From a phage, in assembly GCA_029220445.1 (NCBI GenBank), contig GCA_029220445.1_3666.1: DNA of 64,000 nt; one strand, written 5' to 3'. The position numbers and the translations under genes are program-made. The notes below the pieces were generated by a model that was given only the letters and a program-made list of their open reading frames with translations, made no database searches and was not told the DNA's origin. Shown here in pieces: positions 1-54,940 of this stretch. Every line of letters starts with the position of its first letter. Within the stretch, counting starts at the first letter, position 1.

Positions 1-35
1 ACACGCTGCAAAATTCAAGTAAACTAGACACAAAA

Positions 36-54
36 GGCGGGAATGTTTCCCGCC
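36..54 (+). promoter_or_regulatory. GC-rich 5' leader stem-loop (ggcgggaatgtttcccgcc) of first early cassette
   Basis: Perfect inverted repeat ~20 nt upstream of RBS and ATG at 74; same hairpin plus CA-rich leader recurs before most early ORFs. Confidence 0.5.
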
Positions 55-73
55 AGCACAAAGGAAAAAGATC

Positions 74-478
74 ATGAATAAGAACGTACGCCGCATCATG
101 AACGAGTTGGCAAACGATGAAAAAATTATTGACATGCATTTGATCAACATTTGCCGCCGTTGTGTAACATATAACAACCGCGCCGCAAAAGCGCGTGAGA
201 TGAACGCAAAAGGTACCTTAAAGCCATTCCAGGTGGTGGTAAAGGCCATTAAAGATGTAACTAATACGGCAAACCAGGTACAGGGGAACACCAACGAGAG
301 TACCAATATTGATCCGGCTTACATCATGAAACGGATCCGGACCTGCAAGAACAAAGAGCAAGTGTATAATATCATAGACTGGTTGGATTCTATGGGCGAT
401 GTGGTTTACAATAGGTTTTCTGCAGCTATCGAGATCCAGCTTGACAGGTTGGACGGTAAAGTACTGAAAACTTACTAA
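74..478 (+). CDS. hypothetical early protein (134 aa)
   Basis: ORF preceded by leader hairpin and purine-rich RBS; no recognisable motif. Confidence 0.6.
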   Translation: MNKNVRRIMNELANDEKIIDMHLINICRRCVTYNNRAAKAREMNAKGTLKPFQVVVKAIKDVTNTANQVQGNTNESTNIDPAYIMKRIRTCKNKEQVYNIIDWLDSMGDVVYNRFSAAIEIQLDRLDGKVLKTY

Positions 479-480
479 GT

Positions 481-526
481 TTATTTTTAGATGGCCTTGA
501 CTTCAGGGCCATCAATAAAGTAAACT
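481..526 (+). repeat. conserved intergenic stem-loop element, copy 1 (TTATTTTTAGATGGCCTTGACTTCAGGGCCATCAATAAAGTAAAC)
   Basis: Near-identical copies at 1103-1147 and 4845-4890, stem-conserving variant at 1438-1478; sits directly after a stop codon. Confidence 0.7.
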
Positions 527-559
527 AATCTCAACTAAGCGAAAAAAGGGGGCTTTAAG

Positions 560-679
560 ATGAGCACTACACGCCAATACACAAAGGTAACTATTATCGT
601 TTGCGTTGTCGGTTACATCCTGGCGCAAATGTTAATGAGTAGCGCTAACAGTTTTGCAAAATTTTTCTTAAATTTTTAA
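560..679 (+). CDS. small hydrophobic peptide (39 aa), putative membrane protein
   Basis: ATG 8 nt after AAGGGGG RBS; hydrophobic core; below ORF-track size cutoff; stop overlaps -35 of next promoter. Confidence 0.3.
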   Translation: MSTTRQYTKVTIIVCVVGYILAQMLMSSANSFAKFFLNF

Positions 680-707
680 TTGACAAACTAACTTAGATCG
701 ATATACT
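680..707 (+). promoter_or_regulatory. sigma70-like promoter (TTGACA-N16-TATACT)
   Basis: Hexamers with 16-bp spacer upstream of leader hairpin and ORF at 759. Confidence 0.6.
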
Positions 708-758
708 TAAACACGTAAACGGGAAAACTTCCCAGAGCACACAAAAGGAGAAAACACC

Positions 759-1100
759 ATGACTACTATGACCGCCGCAGAAAAAGCTATGCAGATCGCC
801 GCGCTGAAAAAACAGATCGCAGACCTTGAGAACAAGATCGATAACTTTGAAATCGACGAGGACAAGTACGACGAAAACTATGATGAATGGTTAGACGAGA
901 TCTACGGCGAAATTATGATCGGAAACATTTCTTTTCTTCCGTCGCGTATCCTCAAGGAGCTAGATCCTATCGCTTACCGCTGCGGATTTAGCGACTACAT
1001 CGACAGCCTGGATATTGAGGAAGATGAAGAATACCAGGAACTACAGACAGAGTTAGAAGAAGCAAAAGAAGATCTTGCGGAGCTGGAAGAAAACGAGTAA
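759..1100 (+). CDS. hypothetical acidic early protein (113 aa)
   Basis: ORF with GGAG RBS; strongly acidic C-terminal half. Confidence 0.6.
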   Translation: MTTMTAAEKAMQIAALKKQIADLENKIDNFEIDEDKYDENYDEWLDEIYGEIMIGNISFLPSRILKELDPIAYRCGFSDYIDSLDIEEDEEYQELQTELEEAKEDLAELEENE

Positions 1101-1102
1101 GA

Positions 1103-1147
1103 TTATTTTTAGATGGCCTTGACTCCAGGGCCATCAATAAAGTAAAC
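1103..1147 (+). repeat. conserved intergenic stem-loop element, copy 2
   Basis: Sequence identity to 481-526 and 4845-4890. Confidence 0.7.
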
Positions 1148-1189
1148 TTTATACTGTTAACACTGAACTAATTCAGAGGAGTTAAAACC

Positions 1190-1435
1190 ATGGCAGCACT
1201 AATCACCAAATATTATGCCCCTACCAACACCAAAAGCGCCCGTATCATGGTAAAAGGCTTCGGACGTAAAAAGGTTTACACCTGGGATTATGCCTTAGAC
1301 ACGGAAGACAACTACACCAACGCGATGACCGATTTTATTAATGATCTGAACACGCGGATCTTGACAAATTATAAAATTACCGACATTGCCTATATAGGGG
1401 AAGGCGGGATCTGTTTTGTCGGTATCGTCAAATAA
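1190..1435 (+). CDS. hypothetical early protein (81 aa)
   Basis: ORF with GAGGAG RBS. Confidence 0.55.
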   Translation: MAALITKYYAPTNTKSARIMVKGFGRKKVYTWDYALDTEDNYTNAMTDFINDLNTRILTNYKITDIAYIGEGGICFVGIVK

Positions 1436-1437
1436 GC

Positions 1438-1478
1438 TGTTTTTTCGGTGGTCCTGGTAGCAGGGCCATCTATAAAGA
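1438..1478 (+). repeat. conserved intergenic stem-loop element, variant copy 3 (different loop, compensatory stem)
   Basis: GGTCCTGGTAGCAGGGCC hairpin plus conserved CATCTATAAAG flank; stem preserved while loop differs. Confidence 0.55.
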
Positions 1479-1510
1479 CAGTTTATCAACACAATGAAAG
1501 GAGAAAGTAC

Positions 1511-1858
1511 ATGATCAGCGGGGCAAGTTTTATTATTGGCGCTATTGCTACGGCTTTAATTGTAAACAAGATCCAATCTAAAAACGAAAAAGAGAGCAAC
1601 GCGCTCACAGAATACCCATTTTGGGTATTCAACGACAATGAAGACTACATTATCAAGTACAAGAATGAGAAGGGCGACCAGGTAACACCGCGACCGATCC
1701 CAGCTTACAAGATGCAAGAAACACTATACCGCCTAAAGGCTGGAGGCGCAAAAATCGTAGACTTTTGGGGATATGATTGCAAGGATCAGGAGGTTATAAA
1801 GCGCCGTATCCGGGCTATTCAGGCCAATATTGAAGTTAGCAAGGGGGGGAATATATGA
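1511..1858 (+). CDS. hypothetical membrane protein (115 aa)
   Basis: ATG 1511 preferred over track start 1448 (which lies in the repeat element); GGAG RBS; N-terminal hydrophobic helix. Confidence 0.55.
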   Translation: MISGASFIIGAIATALIVNKIQSKNEKESNALTEYPFWVFNDNEDYIIKYKNEKGDQVTPRPIPAYKMQETLYRLKAGGAKIVDFWGYDCKDQEVIKRRIRAIQANIEVSKGGNI

Positions 1859-2052
1859 AGATTAATTTTGAGAAGATTGTAAAGCGATCTCATGATTCCA
1901 AAGAGCTGCCGGAACGACGCCAGCGTAACAATAAACTGAATAAGCCGAAAAGATTTGGGAAGATCTGGCGAAATCACTATGATCGCAAATTACCCAGCCT
2001 GCTTTTGGAACGTGAACGACAAGCGGAACGATACCGCCACAAAGACAAATAG
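1855..2052 (+). CDS. hypothetical basic protein (65 aa)
   Basis: ATGA start/stop overlap with upstream gene; Arg/Lys-rich. Confidence 0.45.
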   Translation: MKINFEKIVKRSHDSKELPERRQRNNKLNKPKRFGKIWRNHYDRKLPSLLLERERQAERYRHKDK

Positions 2053-2058
2053 CAACCA

Positions 2059-2086
2059 ACGCCCCGCCATTGTGCGGGGTTTTTAT
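2059..2086 (+). terminator. intrinsic terminator (ccccgc-loop-gcgggg + T-run)
   Basis: GC stem-loop followed by TTTTTATTT just after stop at 2052. Confidence 0.7.
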
Positions 2087-2233
2087 TTCTATCCTACGAA
2101 TAGCGCCCATGGTTGGCCCCACAAACGCCACAAAAGCCCCTACCTATGCAATCCCCTTTATTAACCTGAAAACATCACCCAGGGCCGTTTTATGGTGTTA
2201 AAAAATATCATTGACAGTGATTTTATTTAAAGC

Positions 2234-2262
2234 TTGACACCTTGGAATAGTCCGGATATACT
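2234..2262 (+). promoter_or_regulatory. sigma70-like promoter (TTGACA-N17-TATACT)
   Basis: Consensus hexamers upstream of ORF 2298. Confidence 0.65.
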
Positions 2263-2297
2263 AACCACATCAAAGCAAGGAGGAAGGAGTAAACGCC

Positions 2298-2558
2298 ATG
2301 CGTAAATTAAAAAATTTTGATAAAGTTGATGTTGTCCTGAATAATTTTTACTACTGCAATAACAAGGCCATTTGGTGGCGTGATAGTTCCACCGATAAAG
2401 TCAAGGCGCGCTTTCTCCAGGGGCACTGGCAAGGCCGTCCAGTGATTAAAATCATGGGGCAATTGGTAGCGTTTAAAAATTGCCACCGTGTTGATGACGT
2501 TGAAGAGATTTTAAGCATTTTGCGCCACAATAATTTAAAAAATAGTGTTGACAAGTAA
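2298..2558 (+). CDS. hypothetical early protein (86 aa)
   Basis: ORF with AAGGAGG RBS. Confidence 0.6.
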   Translation: MRKLKNFDKVDVVLNNFYYCNNKAIWWRDSSTDKVKARFLQGHWQGRPVIKIMGQLVAFKNCHRVDDVEEILSILRHNNLKNSVDK

Positions 2559-2575
2559 ATCTCGATAAGTATACT
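2548..2575 (+). promoter_or_regulatory. sigma70-like promoter (TTGACA-N16-TATACT), -35 overlaps last codons of upstream ORF
   Basis: Hexamers followed by leader hairpin ggcgggaaaacttcccgcc and RBS. Confidence 0.65.
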
Positions 2576-2632
2576 TAAACATACAGGCGGGAAAACTTCC
2601 CGCCACTAACAAAGAAAACAGGAGAAAATATC

Positions 2633-3256
2633 ATGACCACCGTTAACATTACCACAGGTTGCAATTTATCTTTCGACGTGCTGACCGACGAACAAAAAGA
2701 AAAAGCTATTGAAATGGTCCGCGAAAGAGAAGAACACAGCGGAGAGGATTTTTTCGCAGAAAGTGTAATTGAATATTATAAAGAACAAGTTTTTCCAGAG
2801 TACGGCCTTGAAGATACCGATGTACATTGGTCCGGCTTTTGGTGCCAGGGTGACGGCGCGTCAATCAGTGCTGAAAACGTGGATTTAGAAAAATTCTTGC
2901 GTAAAGTAAAGGCCCTGACCAAGTTCCGATCAATTCGTCACTTGTTCGGCACAATGCACGATGGCGAGTTATCAGCCAGTATTGAACGCGACAAGTACAG
3001 CCGTTACAGCCATGAAAACACTGTAAGCGGATACATTGATACCACCTGGCTAGATCTGACCGCCAAACAAGAAAACAAAGTGGAAGACCTGGAAGAGCTG
3101 ATCACCGAGACGGTACGGGAGCTATCCCGCAAGGTTTACGTAGACCTGGAGGAGGCCTATCTAGAACAGTTCACTACCGAAAACCTGATCGGCCTTATCG
3201 AGGCCAATGATTGGCGGTTTGATGTGGATGAATATGGCGAGATGACTTTTTCATAA
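2633..3256 (+). CDS. hypothetical acidic protein (207 aa)
   Basis: ORF with GGAG RBS; acidic; no confident family assignment. Confidence 0.65.
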   Translation: MTTVNITTGCNLSFDVLTDEQKEKAIEMVREREEHSGEDFFAESVIEYYKEQVFPEYGLEDTDVHWSGFWCQGDGASISAENVDLEKFLRKVKALTKFRSIRHLFGTMHDGELSASIERDKYSRYSHENTVSGYIDTTWLDLTAKQENKVEDLEELITETVRELSRKVYVDLEEAYLEQFTTENLIGLIEANDWRFDVDEYGEMTFS

Positions 3257-3264
3257 ATAAAGTG

Positions 3265-3292
3265 TTGCAATAACCTAAAAACCTGCTATATT
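3265..3292 (+). promoter_or_regulatory. sigma70-like promoter (TTGCAA-N16-TATATT)
   Basis: Hexamers followed by leader hairpin ggggcaagacgcttgcccc. Confidence 0.55.
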
Positions 3293-3345
3293 AAAACTCA
3301 AGGGGCAAGACGCTTGCCCCCACACAAAACAAAGAGGAAAACATT

Positions 3346-3726
3346 ATGAAAAACACTACTAAAGCTATTGACACCGTTATGTTTAACCTGGTTACCTTTC
3401 GCGAGGATATGAAAGATCTTCCACGTGAAACAGTGTGCGATCACATTGAAAACTATCGCAAACTAATCAAAGAGTTACCTTTAAAACGTGACCAGTATGC
3501 GGCTAACGCTATGCTCAACGCCATGATCAAAAAGATGATTCAGTGTGATTTAACCCTGGCCTATGATTATGCAGGTGGTCGTTTTGCAGTATACAATCAG
3601 CCCGTGCCCGGTATGGGCACCACCGAAGAATTGCACGCGTTAAATCTGAAGCAAGATGTATGGGATAACATGCCCCGCGTGGTGGTGTGGGCAGAAAGCG
3701 GAAAGATTTACGGCGACAATTTTTAA
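3346..3726 (+). CDS. hypothetical early protein (126 aa)
   Basis: ORF with AGAGGA RBS. Confidence 0.6.
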   Translation: MKNTTKAIDTVMFNLVTFREDMKDLPRETVCDHIENYRKLIKELPLKRDQYAANAMLNAMIKKMIQCDLTLAYDYAGGRFAVYNQPVPGMGTTEELHALNLKQDVWDNMPRVVVWAESGKIYGDNF

Positions 3727-3790
3727 TCAGGTAACAGGCGGCATATTTGCCGCCTTATTGTTAATCAGAACTGTAAAAGAGGTACATAGA

Positions 3791-4162
3791 ATGGAATTTA
3801 TTATTTTGGCTATATTAGTTGCCTTGTTTAACGCCTGGATCGCTGGCAAGATGGGCAGATCCGCCTTTTTATGGTTTATTATATCTATTTTCCTGGGAGT
3901 GGTTGCAACTATTGTATTGGTTATCCTTGCAATTGTTGACAAGGGGAATAATAGAAAGGGTAAAGTATTTTCAGACCTGTACGACGCTCAAACATTTGTC
4001 AACGCCTACTACAGCGATCTTCCAGTCTCCCTACGTTGCAGCCTTGCACAACAGGTTTTCGATGAAGCTAAAACCAGAGATCACGCCCATGAGATTTGTT
4101 TAACTGAGGCGGATCGCCTATTTGAGAGGAATAGAAAATATGTGGACCAGCCGTTTAAATAA
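3791..4162 (+). CDS. small membrane protein (123 aa, two predicted TM helices)
   Basis: ATG 3791 with AGAGG RBS preferred over overlapping track start 3656; hydrophobic N-terminal 60 aa. Confidence 0.5.
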   Translation: MEFIILAILVALFNAWIAGKMGRSAFLWFIISIFLGVVATIVLVILAIVDKGNNRKGKVFSDLYDAQTFVNAYYSDLPVSLRCSLAQQVFDEAKTRDHAHEICLTEADRLFERNRKYVDQPFK

Positions 4163-4381
4163 TGCCACGTTAATTAATCCCTTTAGTGAAGATTTGAAGC
4201 CAGCCGCCTGGCGCGATGGATTCAATAACGAAAGCTTTATTTTCAGGCCTGATCTTAAGGAATTTTATAACAATGGATCGAACAACGACAGAGATAATTT
4301 TTCTTGTAATGTGCGTGGTGATAATACTCCTGGGGGCCATTGCAAACCACGTCACTGCTAACAGGAGGGAAGGGGGAGACG

Positions 4382-4501
4382 ATGACAACCAAGGATAAGC
4401 CCCGCACCGATAAGGTGCGCCGTGTTATGGTATGGCTTGAGATCATCGCCCTTGAAATATTGTTAGGCGTAGGGATGTACTTTATCGCTGTAAGTAACTG
4501 A
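4382..4501 (+). CDS. small hydrophobic peptide (39 aa)
   Basis: Strong RBS AGGAGGGAAGGGGGAG before ATG 4382; C-terminal TM segment; followed by GC hairpin and T-run. Confidence 0.35.
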   Translation: MTTKDKPRTDKVRRVMVWLEIIALEILLGVGMYFIAVSN

Positions 4502-4558
4502 TAACGGCCCCCAATCCCTGGGGGGCTTAACTTTTTCAAAAATTTTTCTTCCCGGGTG

Positions 4559-4586
4559 TTGCAATCCGGTCCGGAATGTGGATAAT
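4559..4586 (+). promoter_or_regulatory. sigma70-like promoter (TTGCAA-N16-GATAAT)
   Basis: Hexamers upstream of leader hairpin ggggagctaatcccc and ORF 4643. Confidence 0.55.
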
Positions 4587-4642
4587 AACAATCAACGGGG
4601 AGCTAATCCCCACCACCACAAAAACCAGAAAGGAGAAACAAA

Positions 4643-4843
4643 ATGAGCAACAATATCCGCGTTATTAACTTCAAAAAAGAAGAAAAAATTGCCGTGCTGA
4701 TTGACGGTCAAGAAATCTTCAAGGGCGACTATGAAGATCATCAAACGGCGATTAGTATCACTCGCGTGATTGGTTACCATAATTTTTACCCCCAAGGCGC
4801 TGAGGCAGCGGTTAAACGAATCAAAGAGATTGTAGGCCTGTAA
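4643..4843 (+). CDS. hypothetical early protein (66 aa)
   Basis: ORF with AGGAG RBS. Confidence 0.55.
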   Translation: MSNNIRVINFKKEEKIAVLIDGQEIFKGDYEDHQTAISITRVIGYHNFYPQGAEAAVKRIKEIVGL

Positions 4844-4844
4844 A

Positions 4845-4890
4845 ATTTATTTTTAGATGGCCTTGACTCCAGGGCCATCAATAAAGTAAA
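4845..4890 (+). repeat. conserved intergenic stem-loop element, copy 4
   Basis: Identical core to copies at 481 and 1103. Confidence 0.7.
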
Positions 4891-4936
4891 TTTAAACCCT
4901 GTTAAAATACCACGCAGTTAACAAGGAGTGATAGAC

Positions 4937-5236
4937 ATGTTTATCCAGGCTAATAATCTTTATTTCTTTGATGGTCAGATCGTAGATGGTGTGGAAGTGG
5001 AGATCACCGGGTGCCCTGGCGGTCAGGCTATGACTTTTCGGAATAATGCCTTTGATGATTCTCATATCGTTATGAGAATGGAAGTTACGAAGCTGGATGA
5101 CAAGAAAACACTTATTGACTATTCTGTGAAAGATCATCCAGACTACCGCATGATCCATGGTGATTTGTGCACTGTTGACCGTGACAAGGTGGGCGGCATC
5201 GTGATCGCTATTGTGAACGATGTTTTCTCAAACTAA
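4937..5236 (+). CDS. hypothetical early protein (99 aa)
   Basis: ATG 4937 with AAGGAG RBS (track GTG start 4928 lies inside the RBS). Confidence 0.55.
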   Translation: MFIQANNLYFFDGQIVDGVEVEITGCPGGQAMTFRNNAFDDSHIVMRMEVTKLDDKKTLIDYSVKDHPDYRMIHGDLCTVDRDKVGGIVIAIVNDVFSN

Positions 5237-5253
5237 CTTCAGCAGGTGATTTT

Positions 5254-5604
5254 ATGAAAGTCAAACTATATTACCTTAATGAGCTTAACCCCCTTGCCCA
5301 GGTCCGCGCCCTAGCTAATACCTTGATTTGTGAGAAATCTGTATATTGTGTTGAGCTTAACGCCATGCGTGAACGTCTCAAAGGTGGTTACTTTAACATC
5401 CATGCCGCCATCAACGGCCTGAATATGGAATTTATCCGTTTACGTAACAGCCGCCGGAATCTGGCAAGAATGGAACAAGATCCGGCCCACCTTCGTAAGC
5501 TGGTTATTGAAAATCATCTGATGTTTAATGCCGATGGTGATTATTACCATTTTCACCGCAGACGCTGGTACCGTGGCGGCAATACAGACAAGAATGCAAA
5601 ATAA
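5254..5604 (+). CDS. hypothetical early protein (116 aa)
   Basis: ORF closely following previous gene. Confidence 0.55.
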   Translation: MKVKLYYLNELNPLAQVRALANTLICEKSVYCVELNAMRERLKGGYFNIHAAINGLNMEFIRLRNSRRNLARMEQDPAHLRKLVIENHLMFNADGDYYHFHRRRWYRGGNTDKNAK

Positions 5605-5642
5605 GGCCCCTAGCAGGGCCTGCAGCAATATAATCACATAAA

Positions 5643-5675
5643 GGCCATGCAACCGCATGGCCTTTATTATTTTGG
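5643..5675 (+). terminator. intrinsic terminator (ggccatgc-loop-gcatggcc + T-run)
   Basis: 8-bp GC stem followed by TTTATTATTTT. Confidence 0.7.
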
Positions 5676-5722
5676 CGTTACAACGGCATACGAGGCGCTT
5701 AAAAAAATTTTTAAAGAAGTAC

Positions 5723-5750
5723 TTGCATCATTCCCGACAATATGGATAAT
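5723..5750 (+). promoter_or_regulatory. sigma70-like promoter (TTGCAT-N16-GATAAT)
   Basis: Hexamers followed by leader hairpin gggggaggccccc and ORF 5808. Confidence 0.55.
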
Positions 5751-5807
5751 AAGAGTTGTCGAGGGGGAGGCCCCCAATCATTGACCAGATAGATAGGAGT
5801 TAAAATC

Positions 5808-6092
5808 ATGGCTATTGTTACCGCTGGCGATGTAGTAGAAATGGAAGCAAAATACTTAAAAGCGGGTATGCATATCCTACGGAATGATCAAGAGTTATTA
5901 TTAACGATGGTTGACTATAATCCCGGCCAGGATTATCCAAGCATCGACTACTTTTTTGAGTATGTTGATGAAGAGTTAAAAGAGGATGAGGCCTATTGCG
6001 GTGAGTTCTGCAACTTCTTTTGTCCTGATGAGGTTGTAAAGGTTATTTATCAACCTGGCGTAGCTTTCCCGCTGCACGCTATCAATAAATAA
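5808..6092 (+). CDS. hypothetical early protein (94 aa)
   Basis: ORF with AGGAG RBS. Confidence 0.6.
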   Translation: MAIVTAGDVVEMEAKYLKAGMHILRNDQELLLTMVDYNPGQDYPSIDYFFEYVDEELKEDEAYCGEFCNFFCPDEVVKVIYQPGVAFPLHAINK

Positions 6093-6147
6093 ACCTGGCG
6101 GGGCCGAAAAGGCCCCCAATTATGAAAATAAAGAGAGGTAAATCATC

Positions 6148-6381
6148 ATGATGGAACAAATTAAACGCGCTGAGGCTATTAATGGCAATGTGATCTATTT
6201 TGTCAGTAAAAACGAAAAAGGCGTACCATATGCGGCGGTAATAGTACAACCTGACGGCGATTATTGGTTTACTGTGTACGGCGCTTATTCTTTTGGGCGT
6301 CCAGTGCATGATAAAATTTTGAAAGTAGCGAACCCTACCGGGAAGAATATCACAGCAGAAAAATTTTTTGAAAATAGTTGA
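6148..6381 (+). CDS. hypothetical early protein (77 aa)
   Basis: ORF with AGAGAGG RBS; stop codon embedded in next -35. Confidence 0.55.
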   Translation: MMEQIKRAEAINGNVIYFVSKNEKGVPYAAVIVQPDGDYWFTVYGAYSFGRPVHDKILKVANPTGKNITAEKFFENS

Positions 6382-6405
6382 CATGACCGTATAAAACTGT
6401 AATAT
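6378..6405 (+). promoter_or_regulatory. sigma70-like promoter (TTGACA-N16-TAATAT)
   Basis: Hexamers; -35 overlaps TGA stop of upstream ORF. Confidence 0.55.
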
Positions 6406-6456
6406 ATAAATCAAAGGGAGCAACAAGCCCCACCAACCACAAAGAGGATAAAAATC

Positions 6457-6636
6457 ATGGCTATTATTGCAAAGACTGAGATCGTAGGCTTAGATTCTAT
6501 TCTCCTCGCATATGAGGAAGCTATAGAAATGTATGTGGTTTCCTATGGTGAGTATATCCGTGAATATAAATCTATTGATCTGGCTTTTGAATGTTATATT
6601 CGCCAGGTAAATAAAGCATATGATGATTATCGTTAA
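6457..6636 (+). CDS. hypothetical small protein (59 aa)
   Basis: ATG after leader hairpin and AGAGGA RBS; below ORF-track cutoff. Confidence 0.4.
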   Translation: MAIIAKTEIVGLDSILLAYEEAIEMYVVSYGEYIREYKSIDLAFECYIRQVNKAYDDYR

Positions 6637-6642
6637 AATAGT

Positions 6643-6670
6643 TTGACAACAATTACAAATCGGGTAGAAT
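6643..6670 (+). promoter_or_regulatory. sigma70-like promoter (TTGACA-N16-TAGAAT)
   Basis: Hexamers followed by leader hairpin and ORF 6728. Confidence 0.55.
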
Positions 6671-6727
6671 GTATTTCGTAGGGGAGACAAGCGCCCCATT
6701 AAACGCAACAGGAAGAGGATAAACACC

Positions 6728-6973
6728 ATGAAAAGCAATAAAGGTTATAACGGTTACAAAAACAAAACTCATTGGAATGTAAGCCTTTGGATTAATAACG
6801 ATGAGTCATTGTACCGGTTGGCCCAAGGCTTTATTAACGCTAATGCTAATCGTAATGATGCGGCGCGGGATATGATGCTTTTTCTGGAGCTAACCGGACA
6901 AGATAAGACCCCGGACGGCTTCAAGTACAGCACTACGGCGATCCGTTCCGCGATGGTTGGAATGAAACACTAA
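6728..6973 (+). CDS. hypothetical early protein (81 aa)
   Basis: ORF with GGAAGAGGA RBS. Confidence 0.55.
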   Translation: MKSNKGYNGYKNKTHWNVSLWINNDESLYRLAQGFINANANRNDAARDMMLFLELTGQDKTPDGFKYSTTAIRSAMVGMKH

Positions 6974-7050
6974 AATCACATAGCCGCCTTACCCTGGGGC
7001 TGTAGTAGCGGCCCCATGAATAAGGTTACTAACAGAAGAGAATAAACACC

Positions 7051-7155
7051 ATGAAACAGAAATTAATCGATGCAGTGATCTTGGTTATTGCCCTTGATAT
7101 TGGCCTGATTGCAACCATGTCTAATATGATCTTGTCTTCCAACGGTATCGGGTGA
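7051..7155 (+). CDS. small hydrophobic peptide (34 aa)
   Basis: ATG after leader with AGAAGAG RBS; hydrophobic; short. Confidence 0.25.
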   Translation: MKQKLIDAVILVIALDIGLIATMSNMILSSNGIG

Positions 7156-7164
7156 GGTTGGCAA

Positions 7165-7380
7165 ATGATCACTAACAAAACAGGCAAAACGGAATTTTTA
7201 CGCAACTTACAGATCGGCAAGCCTGAGATCTGGTATTGCACTAAAACACCACGTGACGAAATGAAAGACTTCACCGCCACGCTACAACGGGTAAAGATAT
7301 CCATCACGCAGAAAAAGGCCTTGATAGTGGTGGAAGGTGAGATCCCCCAAACCGTTGTTATAGTTGAGCGTACAGCATAG
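7165..7380 (+). CDS. hypothetical early protein (71 aa)
   Basis: ORF immediately downstream of the small peptide. Confidence 0.45.
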   Translation: MITNKTGKTEFLRNLQIGKPEIWYCTKTPRDEMKDFTATLQRVKISITQKKALIVVEGEIPQTVVIVERTA

Positions 7381-7471
7381 TTTAATTTATACCGATACCC
7401 GAAAATTAACCAACAAAGCATAAACAGGCGGTTACCGCCGCCTTAAACGTAGCAGAAAGAGGATAGACACA

Positions 7472-7756
7472 ATGAAAAAGATGATCGCAGTGGTTGCCCT
7501 GGTTGTTGGACTTAATGCGCCTGTAATGGCTAAAGAGCTGGCAAAAGAGGTTGATCTAACGGATATCCATGCCGTCAATCAAATCGGGGTTACTTATCGC
7601 TTATGCCTTGCCGCTAAAACTTTCCAGGACGGCACGACAGAGTACTACGGATTCGAGGGTATCCGGTGCGGTGAGCTTGCTCGCGACCTTAAGGAAGATC
7701 CAGAGCTGGAAGATCTGCCCATCACCGTAAACGGTAAAGCTTACGTAAACCGTTAA
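7472..7756 (+). CDS. secreted/periplasmic protein with N-terminal signal peptide (94 aa)
   Basis: MKKMIAVVALVVGLNAPVMA signal-like N-terminus; AGAGGA RBS. Confidence 0.6.
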   Translation: MKKMIAVVALVVGLNAPVMAKELAKEVDLTDIHAVNQIGVTYRLCLAAKTFQDGTTEYYGFEGIRCGELARDLKEDPELEDLPITVNGKAYVNR

Positions 7757-7758
7757 CC

Positions 7759-7893
7759 ATGAGAAAGATAATCATCACCTTGGGGATTGTGGCGGGATCG
7801 CTGGCGCTCTTTCCCCTTATGGTTAGGTATGTGCTGATCAGTATTGTCCTGGTAGTCAGTGATCTATTGGAAACGGTTGGCACCTTGTTTTAA
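7759..7893 (+). CDS. small membrane peptide (44 aa)
   Basis: ATG 2 nt after upstream stop; hydrophobic throughout. Confidence 0.3.
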   Translation: MRKIIITLGIVAGSLALFPLMVRYVLISIVLVVSDLLETVGTLF

Positions 7894-7906
7894 AGAGCGA
7901 TAAAAA

Positions 7907-8098
7907 ATGAATGTCGAACAAGTTAGAAAGGTATTGGCGGTACTGCGTTATCATAATCATAGAAAGGTCATAGACGATCCTGATTATGTCGATTCAAACC
8001 TGGAAGAGGATACACTACAAGCCATAAGTAACATGCAAGAATTGCTAAAGCGCATGACAGAGAAAAACCGACCGGACTACATAGGCGAAAAAATATAA
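7907..8098 (+). CDS. hypothetical early protein (63 aa)
   Basis: ORF followed by intrinsic terminator. Confidence 0.5.
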   Translation: MNVEQVRKVLAVLRYHNHRKVIDDPDYVDSNLEEDTLQAISNMQELLKRMTEKNRPDYIGEKI

Positions 8099-8112
8099 TA
8101 TTTATAAACTAC

Positions 8113-8144
8113 AAAACAGGGCTTGCAATGGTCCTGTTTTTTGT
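8113..8144 (+). terminator. intrinsic terminator (acaggg-loop-cctgt + TTTTTTG)
   Basis: Stem-loop plus T-run after ORF 7907-8098. Confidence 0.65.
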
Positions 8145-8225
8145 TATACTTATTCCACGGCAGGCACCTGGCGACGGGAGGAGACAATCACCGGGCCTGC
8201 CTGTCATATAAGAACTATAAAAACC

Positions 8226-8254
8226 GTTGACATCTGCCATGGGGTGGGGTAACA
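8226..8254 (+). promoter_or_regulatory. sigma70-like promoter (TTGACA-N17-TAACAT)
   Basis: Hexamers followed by leader hairpin gggcaaaagtgccc. Confidence 0.5.
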
Positions 8255-8309
8255 TTTATCTTGAAGGGGCAAAAGTGCCCACACAACACCCAAGAGAGAG
8301 GAAAACATT

Positions 8310-8582
8310 ATGTCAAGCTGGATTAATCAAGAAGTCGAATCACGTTTTAATGCTATATGGGATCTCATCGAAAAAGAGGACGGAACATCAAGCCCCTACC
8401 TCAACAATTTGGAATTCCATTTTGTGGAAGCGATGAACGCAGAACATGATCACGAAGGTGGCGCGGATGAGTTCGCTAAAGGTTATGGCTTTAACAATGC
8501 CAACGAAATGATCGAGGCGGTAGTACTCCAGGCTGAGGAAGATTATCAATTAAAAACGCTTGAATTCTGCCGCCGTAAGTAA
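8310..8582 (+). CDS. hypothetical early protein (90 aa)
   Basis: ORF with AGAGAGG RBS. Confidence 0.6.
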   Translation: MSSWINQEVESRFNAIWDLIEKEDGTSSPYLNNLEFHFVEAMNAEHDHEGGADEFAKGYGFNNANEMIEAVVLQAEEDYQLKTLEFCRRK

Positions 8583-8642
8583 TAAGATAATGACACGGGC
8601 CAAAAGGCCCACTAATCAGAACCACACAAAGAGAGAAAGAAA

Positions 8643-8861
8643 ATGACAACCCGTAAAATTAAAGTTGTTTGCATTGAATCGACTGGGGGCGCTTTTGTAG
8701 TTGGTCAGGAATATAATGCGGTTTTAATGGGTACGGATTGGAAGGTTAAAGGCCTTAATGGTTACGAGTACGGCACTACTTGCGGCTTGCGTGGTCGAAT
8801 CGGATACGTGAGTTTAGACAATAAAGAAAAATTTGTTTTCGACACCCTTGTGAGTAAATAG
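8643..8861 (+). CDS. hypothetical early protein (72 aa)
   Basis: ORF after leader hairpin gggccaaaaggccc and AGAGAGA RBS. Confidence 0.55.
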   Translation: MTTRKIKVVCIESTGGAFVVGQEYNAVLMGTDWKVKGLNGYEYGTTCGLRGRIGYVSLDNKEKFVFDTLVSK

Positions 8862-8938
8862 CATGAATTGCTAAAGACTGATCTGCGAACTGCTGTATTA
8901 TCAACTAATCAAAACGAACCACATAAAGAGGAAACATC

Positions 8939-9202
8939 ATGAAACGTCTGGATCAGCTTAAATTAGTTCAGTACATGGCCTACAGAATTCTTGAAGTCCA
9001 AAAAGGTAGCAAAAAAGAGGTTTGCGAGAAAGCTTATAAGATCTTTACCCGCAAAAAAGATGACTGGATGCTACGCCAGACCAAAAAGGCTGACATCTTG
9101 GGGTACCTGGAAGAAGAGATCCGCCTTGAAGAGCAAGAAGAGATCCGCCGTAGTGAGGCAGATTATCAGGCAGCTTGGGAAAGCTGGATGAGTAACAAAT
9201 AA
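8939..9202 (+). CDS. hypothetical early protein (87 aa)
   Basis: ORF with AGAGGA RBS; charged, helical-looking. Confidence 0.55.
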   Translation: MKRLDQLKLVQYMAYRILEVQKGSKKEVCEKAYKIFTRKKDDWMLRQTKKADILGYLEEEIRLEEQEEIRRSEADYQAAWESWMSNK

Positions 9203-9269
9203 TACAACAAGTTACATGGTCAGGGGGCAATAAAGCCCCTTGATCGCATAAAAATTATGCCATCCTTGG

Positions 9270-9298
9270 TTGACAAGGATCGGCAGTTTTGCTATATT
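9270..9298 (+). promoter_or_regulatory. sigma70-like promoter (TTGACA-N17-TATATT)
   Basis: Near-consensus hexamers upstream of ORF 9347. Confidence 0.65.
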
Positions 9299-9346
9299 CT
9301 TTTTGAAGGGAAGTTGTAAGAAAATTAACTAAGAGGTAAAAACACC

Positions 9347-9766
9347 ATGAACATTAAATCTAATAATCCGGCATATAGCTTTGATAACGCTTTTTGTCAC
9401 GGTCCGGCGGCGAAAGGATTCGAAATCGATGGTAAACTAATTATTGTCAATGTTGACGGGGAAGAGGTTGCAGTATATCCGGTAGCAGACGTTAAAAGCC
9501 GTTTACAATGCCGCATTGATGTTACCGCCTATCAGCTTGATCCGGTCCGCATAGTTGCCCTGGTCCTGGAGGAAGAAATTAAAGCCATGCATCATAGCAA
9601 CAAGTTTATCGGTGACGCTCAGGATAATATGAAGGTATGCCGCTATAAAGTTAATGAAGTGCTTAAAGAATATGGATTTAAGGATCTGATGATCAAACGT
9701 GATGAAAAATTCCGCTACCGTAACGACCTGGCAAATCGGATTTTTGAAATATACGAATCATTATAA
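9347..9766 (+). CDS. hypothetical early protein (139 aa)
   Basis: ORF with AGAGG RBS; last gene of plus-strand early block. Confidence 0.6.
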   Translation: MNIKSNNPAYSFDNAFCHGPAAKGFEIDGKLIIVNVDGEEVAVYPVADVKSRLQCRIDVTAYQLDPVRIVALVLEEEIKAMHHSNKFIGDAQDNMKVCRYKVNEVLKEYGFKDLMIKRDEKFRYRNDLANRIFEIYESL

Positions 9767-9784
9767 TTTTTTAACTGAATTATC

Positions 9785-9809
9785 AAGGGGCTTAGGCCCC
9801 TTTCTTTTT
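9785..9809 (+). terminator. intrinsic terminator (aggggc-tta-gcccct + T-run)
   Basis: Hairpin plus TTCTTTTTG immediately after ORF 9347-9766. Confidence 0.7.
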
Positions 9810-10399
9810 GTCTGCTCTTCCCCCTACCATAAACGGCCCTACCTGGCAAGTGGAATAATTGACGAGCCATCAATCCCACACACTGTACAAATATACATGT
9901 AAAATAGCTATTGCATAACCTTTCATTGTGTGGTAGCAGGGCTATTTTTACCCGTTTTCCCTTCCAAAATTGCACGTAATGCCGCTATTGCACAAATTTT
10001 AACCTGATGCAGATCTTCAATATCTTGTCAACAAATAAAAATTCTTATAAGTCATACACTTACACCAACACAAAAGCGTTTTCTACGTGAAAAATCGAGT
10101 ATAACTATAGCCGCCAGATCTCAGAATTTACGTACGCTCACCATTCTATAGCCTGCTAAGTATTTATTCCAACCATAGAATAATGGAATAGTCAATACCT
10201 GCATAAAATAATTATTCGTTTAAATTGCATAACATAAATCAGCCAGGGTGTCAACATTTTTCGTAAACAGTCCGAAATTATCGCTGTGAATTATCATAAA
10301 CAGAGAAATCTTTAGTCGTCTAATGTTTACTGTACGTTACTATACTGACTGGAATCATTAGATGACTAAGAGAAAGATAAGAAATAATTAACAATACAA

Positions 10400-11160
10400 T
10401 TATTTTATCTGTAACAATAAGGCAACTATGCAAACGAATGGCATGGCGCGACGGAGTCGCGACATAATATAAAAGCAGTAACCATCACCCCCGTGATAGT
10501 TTGTCTGCAAACTATTAATCAGATCATAGTTGCCTTGTATTTAGTTAATCATGACATAACAAGCAAGGCAACTATAGATCTGCTAATAGTTGCCCTGCTT
10601 TTATATTATGTCACCTATTGTAAACCAGTTAATTGTCAGCTTGTTGGCTGTTAGCTTGTCAATTGTTATCTTGTTAATTGTTTTCATGCAAACGAATGGC
10701 ATGGCTTATCATCTCTGTGTAAACAGTCAATCATGTAAATGATAAGTATGTTAACAGTTATCCATGTAAACTATTAGACATGTAAACTATTGAGAATGTA
10801 AACAGTAAAGGGCGTGAACAGTAAGCGAGGGAATAGTAATAGCGTGAATAGTGACAGCGTAAACAGTCAGGCATGTCAATTAAGTCTAAAGTGTCAAAGG
10901 TGTCATATTATGTCACCAGTATGCCCAGTATGTCAGACAAGTTTTTCTCCTCTTTGTCAAGTGCTGCATGAAAAATTTACAAGCTGGTATGGTAGCATTT
11001 TTGCGGTCCTGTTTACATTCAGTAATGTATGTATAATCCTTGTTGTGTGGGCGCTTAGACGTCTAGACGGTTGGAAGTCCACAGGTCAATATCTAATCTA
11101 TCGGCTGCTAACTATATCCCACACAAATAGTAAGAAATATAATTGTTATGTGTGTAAACA
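10400..11160. repeat. iteron/palindrome array in gene-free region (GGCAACTAT x4 in inverted pairs; 20-bp direct repeat ATGCAAACGAATGGCATGGC x2; ~10 copies of GTAAACAGT/ATGTAAACTATT-type iterons)
   Basis: Direct and inverted repeats read from sequence; no credible ORF; candidate replication origin or regulator-binding array. Confidence 0.6.
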
Positions 11161-11459
11161 GTAACTCATGTTATCAATCCCTGTATGTATCGCCAGTGGT
11201 GCGCATAATGGGTATTATGTTAAATTGCCCGTAATGATAATGGTTCTCACAATGATATGTATTCTCATTCCCCCACACAAAATAGATTGCAAATGTTGTG
11301 CCACTGTGTGAACGGCCTCACCTATTAATTTGCCTCACTGCCTCGATATTTGAGAATTGTTATAAGAATGAGAATGATTCCCATTTCGTCCGCCTGGCAG
11401 CACTCCTGTAGGACAAGCACAAAATCGTGGCATAGCTGGACCTGTTCAGATATTTCTGG

Positions 11460-11700
11460 CTGGCTCTTCAGGTCTGTGTGGGAAAAGCCAACCCCCTCCG
11501 GCGGCGGGGAGGGTGTCAATTAAAAAATTTACGGGGTATATGAAGCGCTCTTCAGGTAAGGCATGTACTATGGGATGAAACCCTCTTCAGGCAATGATAT
11601 TTGTGGGTGTGATATTTGCTGGAAAGCCAGATATGACGGGACTCCCGGCGGGGCAGGGGTAGTACAGACAGGGAAAATATGGGGATGTAGTTGGGTGAAT
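11460..11700. repeat. GC-rich palindromes (ccctccggcggcggggaggg; cccggcggggcagggg) with recurring CTCTTCAGG motif
   Basis: Motif at about 11463, 11547, 11583 and again near 11996; region lacks ORFs. Confidence 0.45.
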
Positions 11701-12355
11701 TGATCGGGCAGGTAGAGTATGGAATATGTTACAAGTATGTTAAATATGGAGGGTGAATATCTGCAGGATTTGTGTGTAAAATCAAAGACTTAAGTAGTGT
11801 TGTGGTATTTTCTATAAATAATTCAAGTTTAATAGGTAATATTTGTCTCTATCCACTTTGTGTGGTAAACAAATTCAAATGAGATTGGTTTACAAGTGTA
11901 TACATAATATACAAATTAAAGATACAAGAAACCCCCCCTCCCCCTTCGGCTACCATTCACCTTTTCCTCTGACTGGTACTTAAACACTTATTCAGACTCT
12001 TCAGGTTATCACCCATATACCATATGGCAGTGACTGGTGTCCTCCGGCCCCTCTTTCGTCACCCGTCCGCTTCGCCATGCTAATGCCATAGCCAAATGTT
12101 CGGTTGTTCACCCTGTTCACTCAGGTGTATCTCCATACCCCTTCAAACCGAAGAGAACAGAAAACCCGAATTACTCGGTAAAAGAAAAGAGAAGAACTTA
12201 ATTTTATCAGGATAGGCAAGAATGTCAAGGCATGACTGCTCACTAAACAAGCAAACAGTCATGTGTGGGAGGTAAGTGATTGTGGTGGTAGGAAATTTAG
12301 TTGAAAGATGTGTTATAGGTGCTTCCAGCACTTTAGCCTGGCAGCTAATTGTGTG

Positions 12356-54660: not shown

Positions 54661-54735
54661 GCCCTGTTAGCTTAGTGGATAAAGCAGCGGCCTTCTAAGC
54701 CGTTGACACTGGTTCGAGTCCAGTACGGGGTGCCA
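54661..54735 (+). tRNA. tRNA-Arg (anticodon UCU)
   Basis: Manual cloverleaf: acceptor gccctgt/acggggt, anticodon loop cttctaa, T-loop ttcgagt, CCA encoded. Confidence 0.8.
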
Positions 54736-54739
54736 AATT

Positions 54740-54826
54740 GGGGAGTTATCCCGTAGAGGTAGCGGTGTAGACTGTAAATCTATTGTCATTGCGACTCGGG
54801 TGGTTCGACTCCACCACTCCCCACCA
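54740..54826 (+). tRNA. tRNA-Tyr (anticodon GUA), type II with long variable arm
   Basis: Acceptor ggggagt/actcccc, anticodon loop ctgtaaa, T-arm ggtgg-ttcgact-ccacc, CCA encoded. Confidence 0.7.
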
Positions 54827-54940
54827 AATTTATATTTTTAGATGCATAAATAATACAGATAATGGCATTGATATTTATCGTCGTTTATACTAGTCACTAA
54901 CTGCTCGAAAATCAGTGTCATTATCAGTATAATTTATAAA

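Follow-up and report, generated by a model that had tools for sequence, protein, structure and literature searches.

The first 9,810 nucleotides of the 64,000-nucleotide stretch of DNA analysed here (the window, by which all positions are numbered) carry, ahead of small open reading frames (ORFs), an arrangement of promoter, GC hairpin and A-rich leader that is real and much more frequent than chance would give. Cassettes of two types that differ in structure, class A and class B, are present in this region; they are a variant of the "PeSL" (promoter-early stem-loop) mobile regulatory cassettes of T4-like phages, the closest known system, described in RB49/phi1, and the kind of element is largely already known. 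The source of the window is an rV5-like E. coli phage (Vequintavirus), with approximately 95% identity to FFH2 and further rV5-like phages. We lean towards reading these units as portable PeSL-type expression cassettes in which the hairpin provides a base-paired mRNA 5' end and the repeated sequences drive ORF shuffling.

A class A unit begins with an AT-rich stretch and a sigma70 promoter close to consensus; after about 10 nt come a G-run/C-run hairpin, the leader, a strong SD and the ATG. The preliminary description of this DNA had proposed the full arrangement for at least twelve early ORFs; it was confirmed in part, with ten full units instead (before the ATGs at 74, 759, 2633, 3346, 4643, 5808, 6457, 6728, 8310 and 8643) and three promoterless ones, all on the plus strand. 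For ORF 74-478 (unit 1-73) the -35 is truncated at the window edge, and the -10 TAAACT (20-25) is followed by the hairpin GGCGGGAATGTTTCCCGCC (36-54) and leader (55-73); FFH2 has the complete promoter, TTGACA-N16-TAAACT. ORF 759-1100 (680-758) has TTGACA (680-685), TATACT (702-707) and a weak, 5-bp hairpin, GGGAAAACTTCCC (721-733), before its leader, and promoter P192 is annotated here in the rV5 record. Hairpins of 8 bp precede the leaders of ORF 2633-3256 (2548-2632; TTGACA 2548-2553, TATACT 2570-2575, ggcgggaaaacttcccgcc 2586-2604) and ORF 3346-3726 (3265-3345; TTGCAA 3265-3270, TATATT 3287-3292, ggggcaagacgcttgcccc 3302-3320, leader CACACAAAACAAAGAGGAAAACATT), both hairpins being present as first quoted. 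ORF 4643-4843 (4559-4642) has TTGCAA (4559-4564), GATAAT (4581-4586) and GGGGAGCTAATCCCC (4597-4611), and ORF 8310-8582 (8227-8309; P168 of the rV5 record) has TTGACA (8227-8232), TAACAT (8250-8255) and GGGCAAAAGTGCCC (8267-8280), each with its leader following. Only 8 of 12 consensus positions are matched by the promoter of ORF 5808-6092 (5722-5807), where a weak -35, CTTGCA (5722-5727), and GATAAT (5745-5750) precede GGGGGAGGCCCCC (5763-5775) and the leader, and by that of ORF 8643-8861 (8560-8642), where TTGAAT (8560-8565) and TAAGAT (8583-8588) form a weak promoter that overlaps the upstream stop and the hairpin GGGCCAAAAGGCCC (8597-8610), also present as first quoted (gggccaaaaggccc), is followed by the leader ACTAATCAGAACCACACAAAGAG. 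The stem-loops had been called perfect; those of ORF 6457-6636 (6378-6456; TTGACA 6378-6383, TAATAT 6400-6405, hairpin 6416-6431) and ORF 6728-6973 (6643-6727; TTGACA 6643-6648, TAGAAT 6665-6670, hairpin 6681-6697, then leader) are imperfect here, the former reading GGGAGC..GCCCC against a perfect GGGGC..GCCCC in FFH2 and rV5. An overlap of the -35 with the preceding stop codon, proposed for several units, is confined to 6378-6383 (TGA inside TTGACA); at 680 the -35 abuts the stop and at 2548 it lies in the last codons.

The three promoterless units, for which no credible promoter was found upstream, are a hairpin and leader before ORF 6148-6381 (6100-6147; GGGGCCGAAAAGGCCCC 6100-6116), ORF 7051-7155 (6995-7050; hairpin 6995-7016, with U-G pairs among its 9 bp) and ORF 7472-7756 (7426-7471; AGGCGGTTACCGCCGCCT 7426-7443), the last having a different hairpin upstream of its orthologue in phAPEC8. 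A hairpin is missing at three other ORFs that do have a promoter and/or leader: ORF 2298-2558, with tandem consensus promoters and a leader (2211-2297; -35 at 2211 and 2234, TATACT 2257-2262; P186 in the rV5 record) and no hairpin, ORF 9347-9766, with a promoter and leader (9270-9346; TTGACA-N17-TATATT 9270-9298; P164 in the rV5 record) and no GC hairpin, and ORF 8939-9202, with a leader (8862-8938) in which ACTAATCAAAACGAACCACATAAAGAGG repeats the leader at 8611-8635.

Enrichment was scored with a strict composite: a promoter matching at least 9 of 12 positions, followed, from a point 8-14 nt past the -10, by a perfect stem of 5 bp or more, 4 or more of them GC pairs. Four such composites lie in 1-9810, against 0.04 +/- 0.2 in 200 dinucleotide shuffles, none of which reached 4; there is one per strand in the other 54 kb, none on the minus strand of 1-9810, and the arrangement is absent from the minus-strand gene array of the window. 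The genomes of tuntematon, J. alia and EJP2 hold 15, 10 and 6 (approximately 0.05 in shuffles). The gap between -10 and hairpin is 8-13 nt (median 10) in the window and 6-16 nt (mode 10-12) in other phages. Transcription from sigma70 promoters usually starts 5-9 nt past the -10, leaving about 1-6 (typically about 3) unpaired nucleotides ahead of the stem, and it is from this usual distance only that we infer a position of the hairpin at the mRNA 5' end; this predicted geometry fits the earlier suggestion that the hairpin stabilises the mRNA. The spacing could be this tight simply because a hairpin has to be fitted in after the -10 and before a leader that needs to remain open. That leader, of 19-34 nt from hairpin end to ATG, had been described as CA-rich, and is better called A-rich, U- and G-poor and unstructured (A 54%, C 18%, G 17% and T 11%, against 32/20/23/25% in the region), with an unpaired probability of 0.73 at the ribosome-binding region versus 0.61 in shuffles. 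A common SD context, AAGGAG or AGAGGA and then an A-rich spacer, closes the cassettes.

Class B units, of which there are four, one of them degenerate, consist of a 47-nt hairpin that contains the -35 within a 19-bp interrupted helix. They precede ORF 560-679 (479-526; helix 479-525, TTGACT 497-502, TAAACT 521-526), ORF 1190-1435 (1101-1148; helix 1101-1147, TTGACT 1119-1124, TAAACT 1143-1148) and ORF 4937-5236 (4845-4892; helix 4845-4891, TTGACT 4863-4868, TAAATT 4887-4892), the latter two labelled 'terminator' in the Murica record; before ORF 1511-1858 (1436-1482) the -35 is lost (CTGGTA), and compensatory changes have kept the fold despite this loss. Pairing held in 97.4% of cells, four pairs had changed on both sides, and all one-sided changes were of the G-U type; covariation was 0.239 versus 0.147 when shuffled (0/500) and at most 0.07 for slid controls. 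Class B is a conserved RNA helix around the -35, and may serve to form or process the ends of transcripts that enter from upstream. A terminator-like hairpin (8113-8140), with a T-run after it, also encloses the -35 of a promoter (unit 8113-8150; -35 TTGCAA 8123-8128, -10 TATACT 8145-8150), and Murica has a different hairpin in its place. A canonical hairpin and T-run terminator ends the array (9785-9802), and further ones lie at 2061-2080, 3736-3755, 4506-4527 and 5638-5667; the six terminator-like hairpins of the region have 5-7 T within 8 nt past the stem.

In the original PeSL model such hairpins are terminators or attenuators of upstream transcription. They would shield strong promoters that follow one another and keep read-through low, and that they also occur in the downstream transcript would be incidental. 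The PeSL211/210 stem-loop was reported by the PeSL authors to cut lacZ expression as strongly as rrnB T1, and by analogy this activity, although known for one stem-loop, would count against a 5'-stabiliser. In both RB49 and CR3 the promoter spacer is the usual place of the hairpin, before a U-containing -10 box. A hairpin there cannot be a 5' stabiliser, which speaks for a shared role on DNA or on transcripts from upstream; class B and the 8113-8140 hairpin likewise precede or enclose promoters, and were called terminators by Murica's annotators, and the three promoterless hairpins sit just past stop codons. Unlike PeSLs, the hairpins of the window lie mostly inside their own promoter's transcript and lack a U-tract (class A hairpins have 0-3 T in the next 8 nt and none at six cassettes), so that the class A hairpin is no efficient terminator: efficient termination there would silence the gene served. 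U is depleted rather than enriched in the leader, and a fixed distance from the -10 is unnecessary for a terminator. For the hairpins at large, we regard termination as unlikely.

Comparison of orthologues supports the favoured reading in so far as structure is kept rather than sequence. Loops changed at 0.60 events per column versus 0.225 in stems (p = 2e-4), but against it stems were no better conserved than their flanks (0.20-0.23). Class A stem changes were mostly to G-U, plus one paired insertion: in alleles of the ORF 3346 cassette, G-U changes and the insertion of a paired C+G leave the pairing intact, with no double-sided compensation in the tool alignment of these alleles. The positions that flank GGGAA..TTCCC pair in 32/37 and 29/37 contexts of that family, as both C-G and G-C. 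Stems differ among cassettes (GGCGGGAA.., GGGGCAAG.., GGGCC.., GGGGA..), with at least six unrelated sequences in the region. Since hairpin sequences differ and loops vary freely between orthologues, which argues against one sequence-specific binder, the proposal of a shared regulatory target drew little support. The palindromes might act as DNA, either as an operator, spanning roughly +3 to +22, of a dimeric repressor that shuts off early transcription, or as a cruciform or recombination signal of a site-specific enzyme. Repressor roadblocks typically sit at such a place, shortly after +1, half-sites of the GCGGGAA-N3-TTCCCGC family are found in four genera (Vequintavirus, Phapecoctavirus, Justusliebigvirus and Asteriusvirus), recombination junctions fall inside cassettes, and the PeSL authors left site-specific recombination possible. 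This seems improbable, as no single binder would see all the unrelated stems, the G-U changes pair in plus-strand RNA but break a DNA palindrome, and the junctions, in leader, -35 and SD and at no fixed hairpin point, fit homologous recombination.

We attach a similarly low probability to class-wide post-transcriptional control through hairpin and leader as a shared target, whether of an RNA-binding regulator such as a translational repressor or of a nuclease such as RNase III or a T4 RegB-like endonuclease that cuts at GGAG/SD motifs. The common architecture and SD context would permit it, class B resembles T7-type RNase III sites in size and internal loop, and conservation of TAGGGCGG in Stephanstirmvirinae cassettes exceeds what pairing alone requires; but RNase III would need longer stems than the 5-9 bp of class A, loops, where proteins usually make contact, vary most, no candidate regulator was found, and the region's ORFs had no Pfam or PHROG function except for one T7 gp1.1-like protein. 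That the hairpins are functionless relics, copied along with one ancestral promoter-leader cassette by duplication and gene conversion, is very improbable even though the sequence shared by cassettes extends past their functional boxes, there are several degenerate hairpins (759, 6457, 6728) and three ORFs with good promoters lack one (2298, 9347 and, in this genome, 8939), since independent unrelated stems occupy the same position, pairing is kept while loops drift, and the design persists over four or five phage lineages of approximately 65-80% or no DNA identity.

This recurrence takes in Phapecoctavirus, Justusliebigvirus, a jumbo Asteriusvirus and Certrevirus CR3. Where relatives differ by an inserted or deleted gene or by an exchanged cassette, the breakpoints lie within cassettes. 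Gene 8643-8861 is missing from FFH2 and Murica, with the junction within the repeated leader: the insertion/deletion (8639-8903) is flanked by two leader copies (8611-8635 and that of ORF 8939), and in both phages the ORF 8643 cassette directly drives the next gene. The 6728 gene cassette is missing from rV5; between -35 and SD (spacer, hairpin, leader) it is replaced relative to FFH2 and rV5 and resembles phAPEC8 cassettes. In tuntematon the shared ORFs stand in scrambled order, bearing different cassettes. At the level of sequence, these comparisons show the repeated promoter, hairpin and leader acting as recombination junctions for ORF gain, loss, re-ordering and acquisition of new cassettes.

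On the favoured reading of portable expression cassettes, the hairpin most likely serves stability and insulation by providing every mRNA with a base-paired 5' end. Base pairing at the 5' end makes RNase E act much more slowly, and E. coli mRNAs are stabilised by stem-loops at the 5' terminus (review PMC3997798, its references 92-95). The hairpin would slow decay by RNase E that depends on RppH and the 5' end, and would insulate the open ribosome-binding leader from sequence upstream, and the same protection for each cistron released from a read-through transcript would explain the three promoterless units. The hairpin is weakened or lost in several natural alleles (6457 and 6728 in the window, 74 in JLBYU08, 8310 in S127), so it is not essential for every gene. 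The region 1-9810 would be the distal, hyperplastic part of the unit transcribed by host RNA polymerase, made of small ORFs with no annotated function, each behind a portable PeSL-type cassette, and the shuffling of ORFs via these cassettes is seen, as judged from the genomes compared, to run both within and between unrelated coliphage lineages.

When every intergenic region was folded and promoter boxes and hairpins were then located, ten ORFs of the plus-strand early region at 1-9810 (named here by ATG position: 74, 759, 2633, 3346, 4643, 5808, 6457, 6728, 8310 and 8643) were found to be preceded by what we call a class A cassette, consisting of a promoter-like site, a GC hairpin, a leader, a Shine-Dalgarno (SD) sequence and the ATG. 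Three further ORFs (6148, 7051 and 7472) carry the hairpin and leader without a credible promoter, ORFs 2298, 8939 and 9347 have a promoter and/or leader alone and no hairpin, and ORFs 560, 1190 and 4937, with a degenerate copy at 1511, are preceded by a different element, class B, in which a 47-nt helix is built around the promoter -35. The preliminary description, which had given at least twelve ORFs the same arrangement, was therefore slightly overstated, with ten full units and 13 having hairpin plus leader, and it had merged two types; the three hairpins that it quoted were all recovered, at 2586-2604, 3302-3320 and 8597-8610. The leader that it called CA-rich would more aptly be termed A-rich and U-poor: A, C, G and T make up 54%, 18%, 17% and 11% of it, compared with 32%, 20%, 23% and 25% of the region.

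By sequence match, eight of the ten class A units have a promoter at 9/12 or better with 16-17 nt spacing, TTGACA occurring in five, and the 25 nt 5' of the -35 are 64-88% AT, compared with 57% for the region. The gap from the -10 to the class A hairpin is 8-13 nt (median 10), the G-run precedes the C-run in all 13 hairpins (MFE -5.5 to -17 kcal/mol), 19-34 nt lie between the hairpin end and the ATG, and an SD and ATG stand at the 3' end of every unit, with an unpaired probability for the RBS region of 0.73 versus 0.61 in shuffles. The G-run of the hairpin at 5763-5775 has grown to about 17 G in its V18 orthologue, and at another site slur16 has a run of about 11-12 G; these expansions may reflect slippage at a homopolymer, or may be artefacts of how the deposited genomes were sequenced.

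For enrichment analysis, a strict composite was defined as a promoter matching at 9/12 or better, with a perfect stem beginning 8-14 nt past the -10 that has 5 bp or more, 4 or more of them GC pairs. Four such composites were found in 1-9810, against 0.04 +/- 0.2 in 200 dinucleotide shuffles, none of which reached four (approximately 100-fold enrichment), so the repeated arrangement is above chance. One strict composite per strand was found in the other 54 kb of the window and none on the minus strand of 1-9810, and a scan of the minus-strand gene array at 10-54 kb found the cassette design to be essentially absent. In FFH2 almost no cassettes occur over the 19 kb that precede the position where the window starts, which confines them to approximately the final 11 kb of the unit. 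Two promoter-then-hairpin composites on the minus strand, at 18238-18181 and 13984-13925 in the convergent array, have a T-run 3' of the hairpin (AAGAGGG..CCCTCTT CTTTAAAA and AAAGAGGGGC..GCCCCTCTTT TTAC) and are more like promoter-proximal attenuators or terminators than class A units.

Bases 1-10000 of the window match rV5-like coliphages, FFH2 being the best match (95.4% identity over 97% of the query; 295 phage records in all), and on the plus strand 1-9810 forms the last part of the rV5 transcription unit "genes 10-1-238-164". In their predictions for this unit, Kropinski et al. listed sigma70 promoters and terminators and described no composite element. All ORFs of the region are annotated as hypothetical in FFH2, rV5 and Murica, and Pfam and PHROG scans of them assigned no function, with the sole exception of a T7 gp1.1-like ORF at 1855-2052. 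This 65-aa ORF matches Pfam PF08200, "Bacteriophage 1.1 protein" (E = 4.6e-11), and is translationally coupled to ORF 1511-1858 via an ATGA overlap. Downstream, 9810-12000 is AT-rich and essentially non-coding (GC 32-36% at 9.9-10.8 kb), lies between two convergent gene arrays and is the counterpart of the "non-coding" box on the rV5 map; it holds five copies of GTAAACAGTnnnnCATGTAAAn (10719-11175), several inverted repeats and two exact copies of ATGCAAACGAATGGCATGGC at 10428 and 10686, and looks origin-like or regulatory. A plus-strand tRNA cluster of seven genes (Arg-tct, Tyr, Ser, Thr, Met, Pro) lies at 54661-55473, and in it is a 99-nt tRNA-like gene (55130-55228) to which ARAGORN gives a four-base anticodon, "atcc".

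To compare conservation of structure with that of sequence, eleven window hairpins were aligned with their orthologues from nine other Vequintavirus genomes. Changes were concentrated in the loops, at 0.60 events per column, against 0.225 in the stems (p = 2e-4) and 0.20-0.23 in the flanks, and those in stems were mostly pairing-neutral: C-to-U or A-to-G changes giving G-U pairs at 3346, 4643 and 7472, a U-G/C-G exchange at 7051 and a paired C+G insertion at 3346 in SYGMH1. The few disruptive changes affect hairpin 74 in JLBYU08 and terminal pairs at 8310 and 8643. Formal covariation of class A is weak, because structural alignment of nine alleles of the 3346 hairpin gave no double-sided and two one-sided changes, in an alignment spoiled by indels. 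The GGGAA-N3/5-TTCCC family is widespread; of its 37 distinct contexts, 32 are paired at the first flanking position and 29 at the second, and the pairs include both C-G and G-C. Interior mismatches across all distinct hairpins comprised five G-U and two A-C, counts too few to judge strand-specific RNA selection, and an Rfam scan gave no match at the gathering score (best hits 25-34 bits, cut-offs 58-94).

The cassettes also mark places where close relatives differ. Segment 8639-8903, containing ORF 8643-8861, is missing from FFH2 and Murica, where the next gene is driven directly by the cassette with the 8597 hairpin, and the junction of this indel falls within a duplicated leader, ACTAATCA..CACA.AAAGAG. 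Segments 5251-5593 and 6653-7033 are missing from rV5, in which the cassette of FFH2's 6728 orthologue instead drives the 7051 orthologue. In the window itself, the -35-to-SD segment of the 6728 cassette has been swapped for a phAPEC8-like spacer, hairpin and leader. This gives three indels and one cassette swap with junctions in the leader, -35 or SD, a small sample limited to the cassettes. The ORFs held in common with tuntematon (76-93% identity) occur there in a different order and with different cassettes. Viewed at the level of sequence, these comparisons show a composite that exists as a repeated and enriched unit, fixed in position, with its structure kept, and that coincides with recombination junctions.

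This behaviour is that described for promoter-early stem-loops (PeSLs), the mobile regulatory cassettes of the T4-like phages RB49/phi1, T4/PST and KVP40/nt-1 (Arbiol et al. 2010, PMC2839356; Comeau et al. 2014, PMC4122927). PeSLs are intergenic units of approximately 80-100 bp that combine a consensus sigma70 promoter and an AT-rich stretch with a polyG/polyC stem-loop and end in an SD and ATG. They occur in many copies within a region of small ORFans, and at them close relatives differ by insertions, deletions and replacements with junctions inside the motif; the promoter, polyG-polyC stem-loop, AT-rich stretch, SD and ATG, ORFan cluster and indel junctions were each found here. The RB49 leader is likewise A/C-rich, and the class B elements, together with an element at 8113 (a terminator-like hairpin at 8113-8140 with a T-run, enclosing a -35), fit the PeSL subclass in which the stem-loop overlaps the -35. 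There are three differences. The carrier is a Vequintavirus, outside the published scope of T4-like myoviruses. The stem-loop lies mainly 8-13 nt past the -10 and would be transcribed from its own promoter, whereas in RB49 most stem-loops overlap the -10 or stand between it and the -35, and the stem-loop of the published fifth subclass is described as before the start site. Class A also lacks a U-containing tail, so the terminator role published for PeSLs would not suit it. By the sequence-level and recombination definitions of PeSLs, the cassettes are a putative variant of these elements outside T4-like phages. Our literature search found no description of PeSL-type or promoter-hairpin cassettes in rV5-like phages or Vequintavirus.

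The comparison with related phages proposed in the preliminary description revealed the same architecture, which was even clearer in others. The Phapecoctavirus phages tuntematon and phAPEC8 have TTGACA-N16/17-TAAGAT/TAAACT, approximately 10 nt ending in TAG, GGCGG..., a leader and an ATG; Justusliebigvirus alia and the jumbo Asteriusvirus EJP2 have it too, and the design is found in Stephanstirmvirinae, Asteriusvirus and Certrevirus. Strict composites numbered 15 in tuntematon, ten in J. alia and six in EJP2, against about 0.05 expected, and the hairpins of the other phages start 6-16 nt past the -10 (mode 10-12). In Certrevirus CR3 the hairpins are mostly between -35 and -10 with a few downstream, and direct reading of the RB49 PeSL region found the hairpin between -35 and -10 to be the usual form. 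Four ORFs of the window (2633, 3346, 6728 and 7907) match DNA of EJP2's terminal early region (genome 349 kb) at 66-80%, and other small ORFs within 2633-8098 match Phapecoctavirus at up to 93%, which points to a pool of early ORFs common to unrelated coliphages.

Existing annotation has divided the element. In the phAPEC8 record (NC_020079), the 20-mers labelled "putative promoter determined with PHIRE", having earned the label of phage promoter by their repetition, are that phage's class A hairpins; one example, GTAGGGCGGCAATGGTGCCG, stands at 556-575, 1787-1806 and 3202-3221. These 20-mers lie directly 3' of a MEME-predicted host promoter and approximately 21 nt before the ATG, a placement that shows them to be the hairpin downstream of a predicted sigma70 promoter and not promoters. 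In the Murica record, class B elements are labelled terminators and class A hairpins are without annotation. The phAPEC8 "PHIRE promoters" and some rV5-like "terminators" are parts of one composite element.

As to what the class A hairpin does, sigma70 transcription would start 5-9 nt past the -10, placing the hairpin approximately 1-6 nt from the predicted 5' end of the mRNA, with 1-6 unpaired nt predicted for a +1 at 7-8 nt past the -10; our literature search found no start-site or transcriptome results for rV5-like phages. In E. coli, 5'-terminal stem-loops stabilise the ompA and papA mRNAs (Emory, Bouvet and Belasco 1992, via PMC3997798), and a base-paired 5' end slows RNase E (PMC3997798). 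The arrangement here, a stable hairpin a few nt from the predicted 5' end and then an accessible RBS region, resembles these stabilisers and would match the geometry known to be required for protection from 5'-end-dependent RNase E, with the open A-rich leader expected to keep the RBS accessible. The promoterless units would fit as well, since each cistron cut from a read-through transcript would also begin with a hairpin. The element differs from ompA and papA in being repeated on more than ten genes and mobile and in that its 5' end is a predicted one, and some of the predicted 5' tails, which reach up to about 6 nt at 759 and 5808, may exceed the length that allows protection.

As RB49 and CR3 hairpins usually lie in the promoter spacer, there may instead be a role common to all PeSL subclasses, exerted on upstream transcripts or on DNA, and the tight spacing may come partly from packing constraints. 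The class A hairpin is, like an intrinsic terminator, an intergenic GC-rich stem-loop, and the region holds six ordinary terminator-like hairpins too, but the 8 nt after these contain 5-7 T and those after class A hairpins contain 0-3. Because the hairpin is part of its own transcript and U is depleted in the sequence behind it, we infer that it is unlikely to be an efficient terminator. Several hairpins score as terminator-like on the minus strand, but with weak T-runs, and backup termination against antisense transcription from the convergent unit was dropped with nothing in its support. Also set aside were N4-type hairpin promoters (sigma70 boxes lie upstream, and we know of no virion RNA polymerase in this phage group), boxA/nut-like antitermination signals (the leaders have no U-rich boxA core after the hairpin) and Rho rut sites (the C-rich, G-poor stretch is just 15-20 nt or so and is translated at once).

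Class B is an RNA structure, and this is well supported. Its helix consists of 9 + 10 bp interrupted by a 2x3 internal loop, at a z-score of -5 to -7, and across 16 distinct copies 97.4% of cells are paired, four pairs are changed on both sides, and covariation is 0.239 versus 0.147 in shuffled alignments (0/500), with slid controls at 0.07 or below. Where just one side has changed, the change is always of the G-U type; together with an invariant U-G pair, this assigns the fold to plus-strand RNA. The copy at 1436-1482 has lost the -35 and kept the helix. T7 early genes are separated by RNase III processing sites (R sites), interrupted helices in the polycistronic early transcript. Class B resembles these in being an intergenic helix of about 19 bp with a small asymmetric internal loop on a polycistronic early transcript, and with approximately 20 bp, an internal loop and conservation as RNA it is, by structure, a candidate RNase III site; unlike the T7 R sites, it encloses a promoter -35. 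RNase III was dropped for class A, whose stems of 5-9 bp are far too short. For class B and the 8113 element, termination or attenuation of upstream transcription is plausible. At the counterpart of 8113-8140, Murica and JLBYU08 have another hairpin, GGGG-TTGACTTGTTCGG-CCCC, again enclosing a -35, which reads as another case of replacement, here by a structural analogue. In the window, the promoter at this place (TTGCAA 8123-8128, TATACT 8145-8150; context 8113-8226) is followed by a structured RNA of approximately 50 nt at 8155-8205 (MFE -23.8, z-score -2.96) that ends before the promoter at 8227 and may be a small RNA or leader; its core, GGCAC..GGGGGAGACAATCACC, is kept in rV5-like phages, with approximately 81% identity in phAPEC8 and tuntematon.

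A wider reading, which we offer as speculation and think rather unlikely, is that the hairpin-leader unit is a horizontally exchanged "universal expression cassette" common to unrelated coliphage lineages, namely Vequintavirinae, Stephanstirmvirinae, the jumbo Asteriusvirus and Krischvirus, whose paired 5' end would exempt early phage mRNAs from 5'-end-dependent RNase E decay that the phage perhaps stimulates, and whose repeats would let ORFans hop between families ready for expression. Such cross-lineage "self-marking" by a 5' hairpin would be tied to RNase E stimulation of the Srd type; rV5 gp11 is reported to be a homologue of T4 Srd, which activates RNase E against host mRNAs. If the hairpin does act as a 5' stabiliser and insulator, each cassette, with its promoter, 5' hairpin, open leader and SD, would be a compact natural expression unit, independent of context, of the kind that synthetic biologists build by hand. 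The PeSL concept, in which regulatory repeats serve as currency when ORFs are exchanged, would then apply not just to T4-like phages but also to at least four further groups of coliphages, and would help to account for the sharing of pools of small early genes for host takeover.
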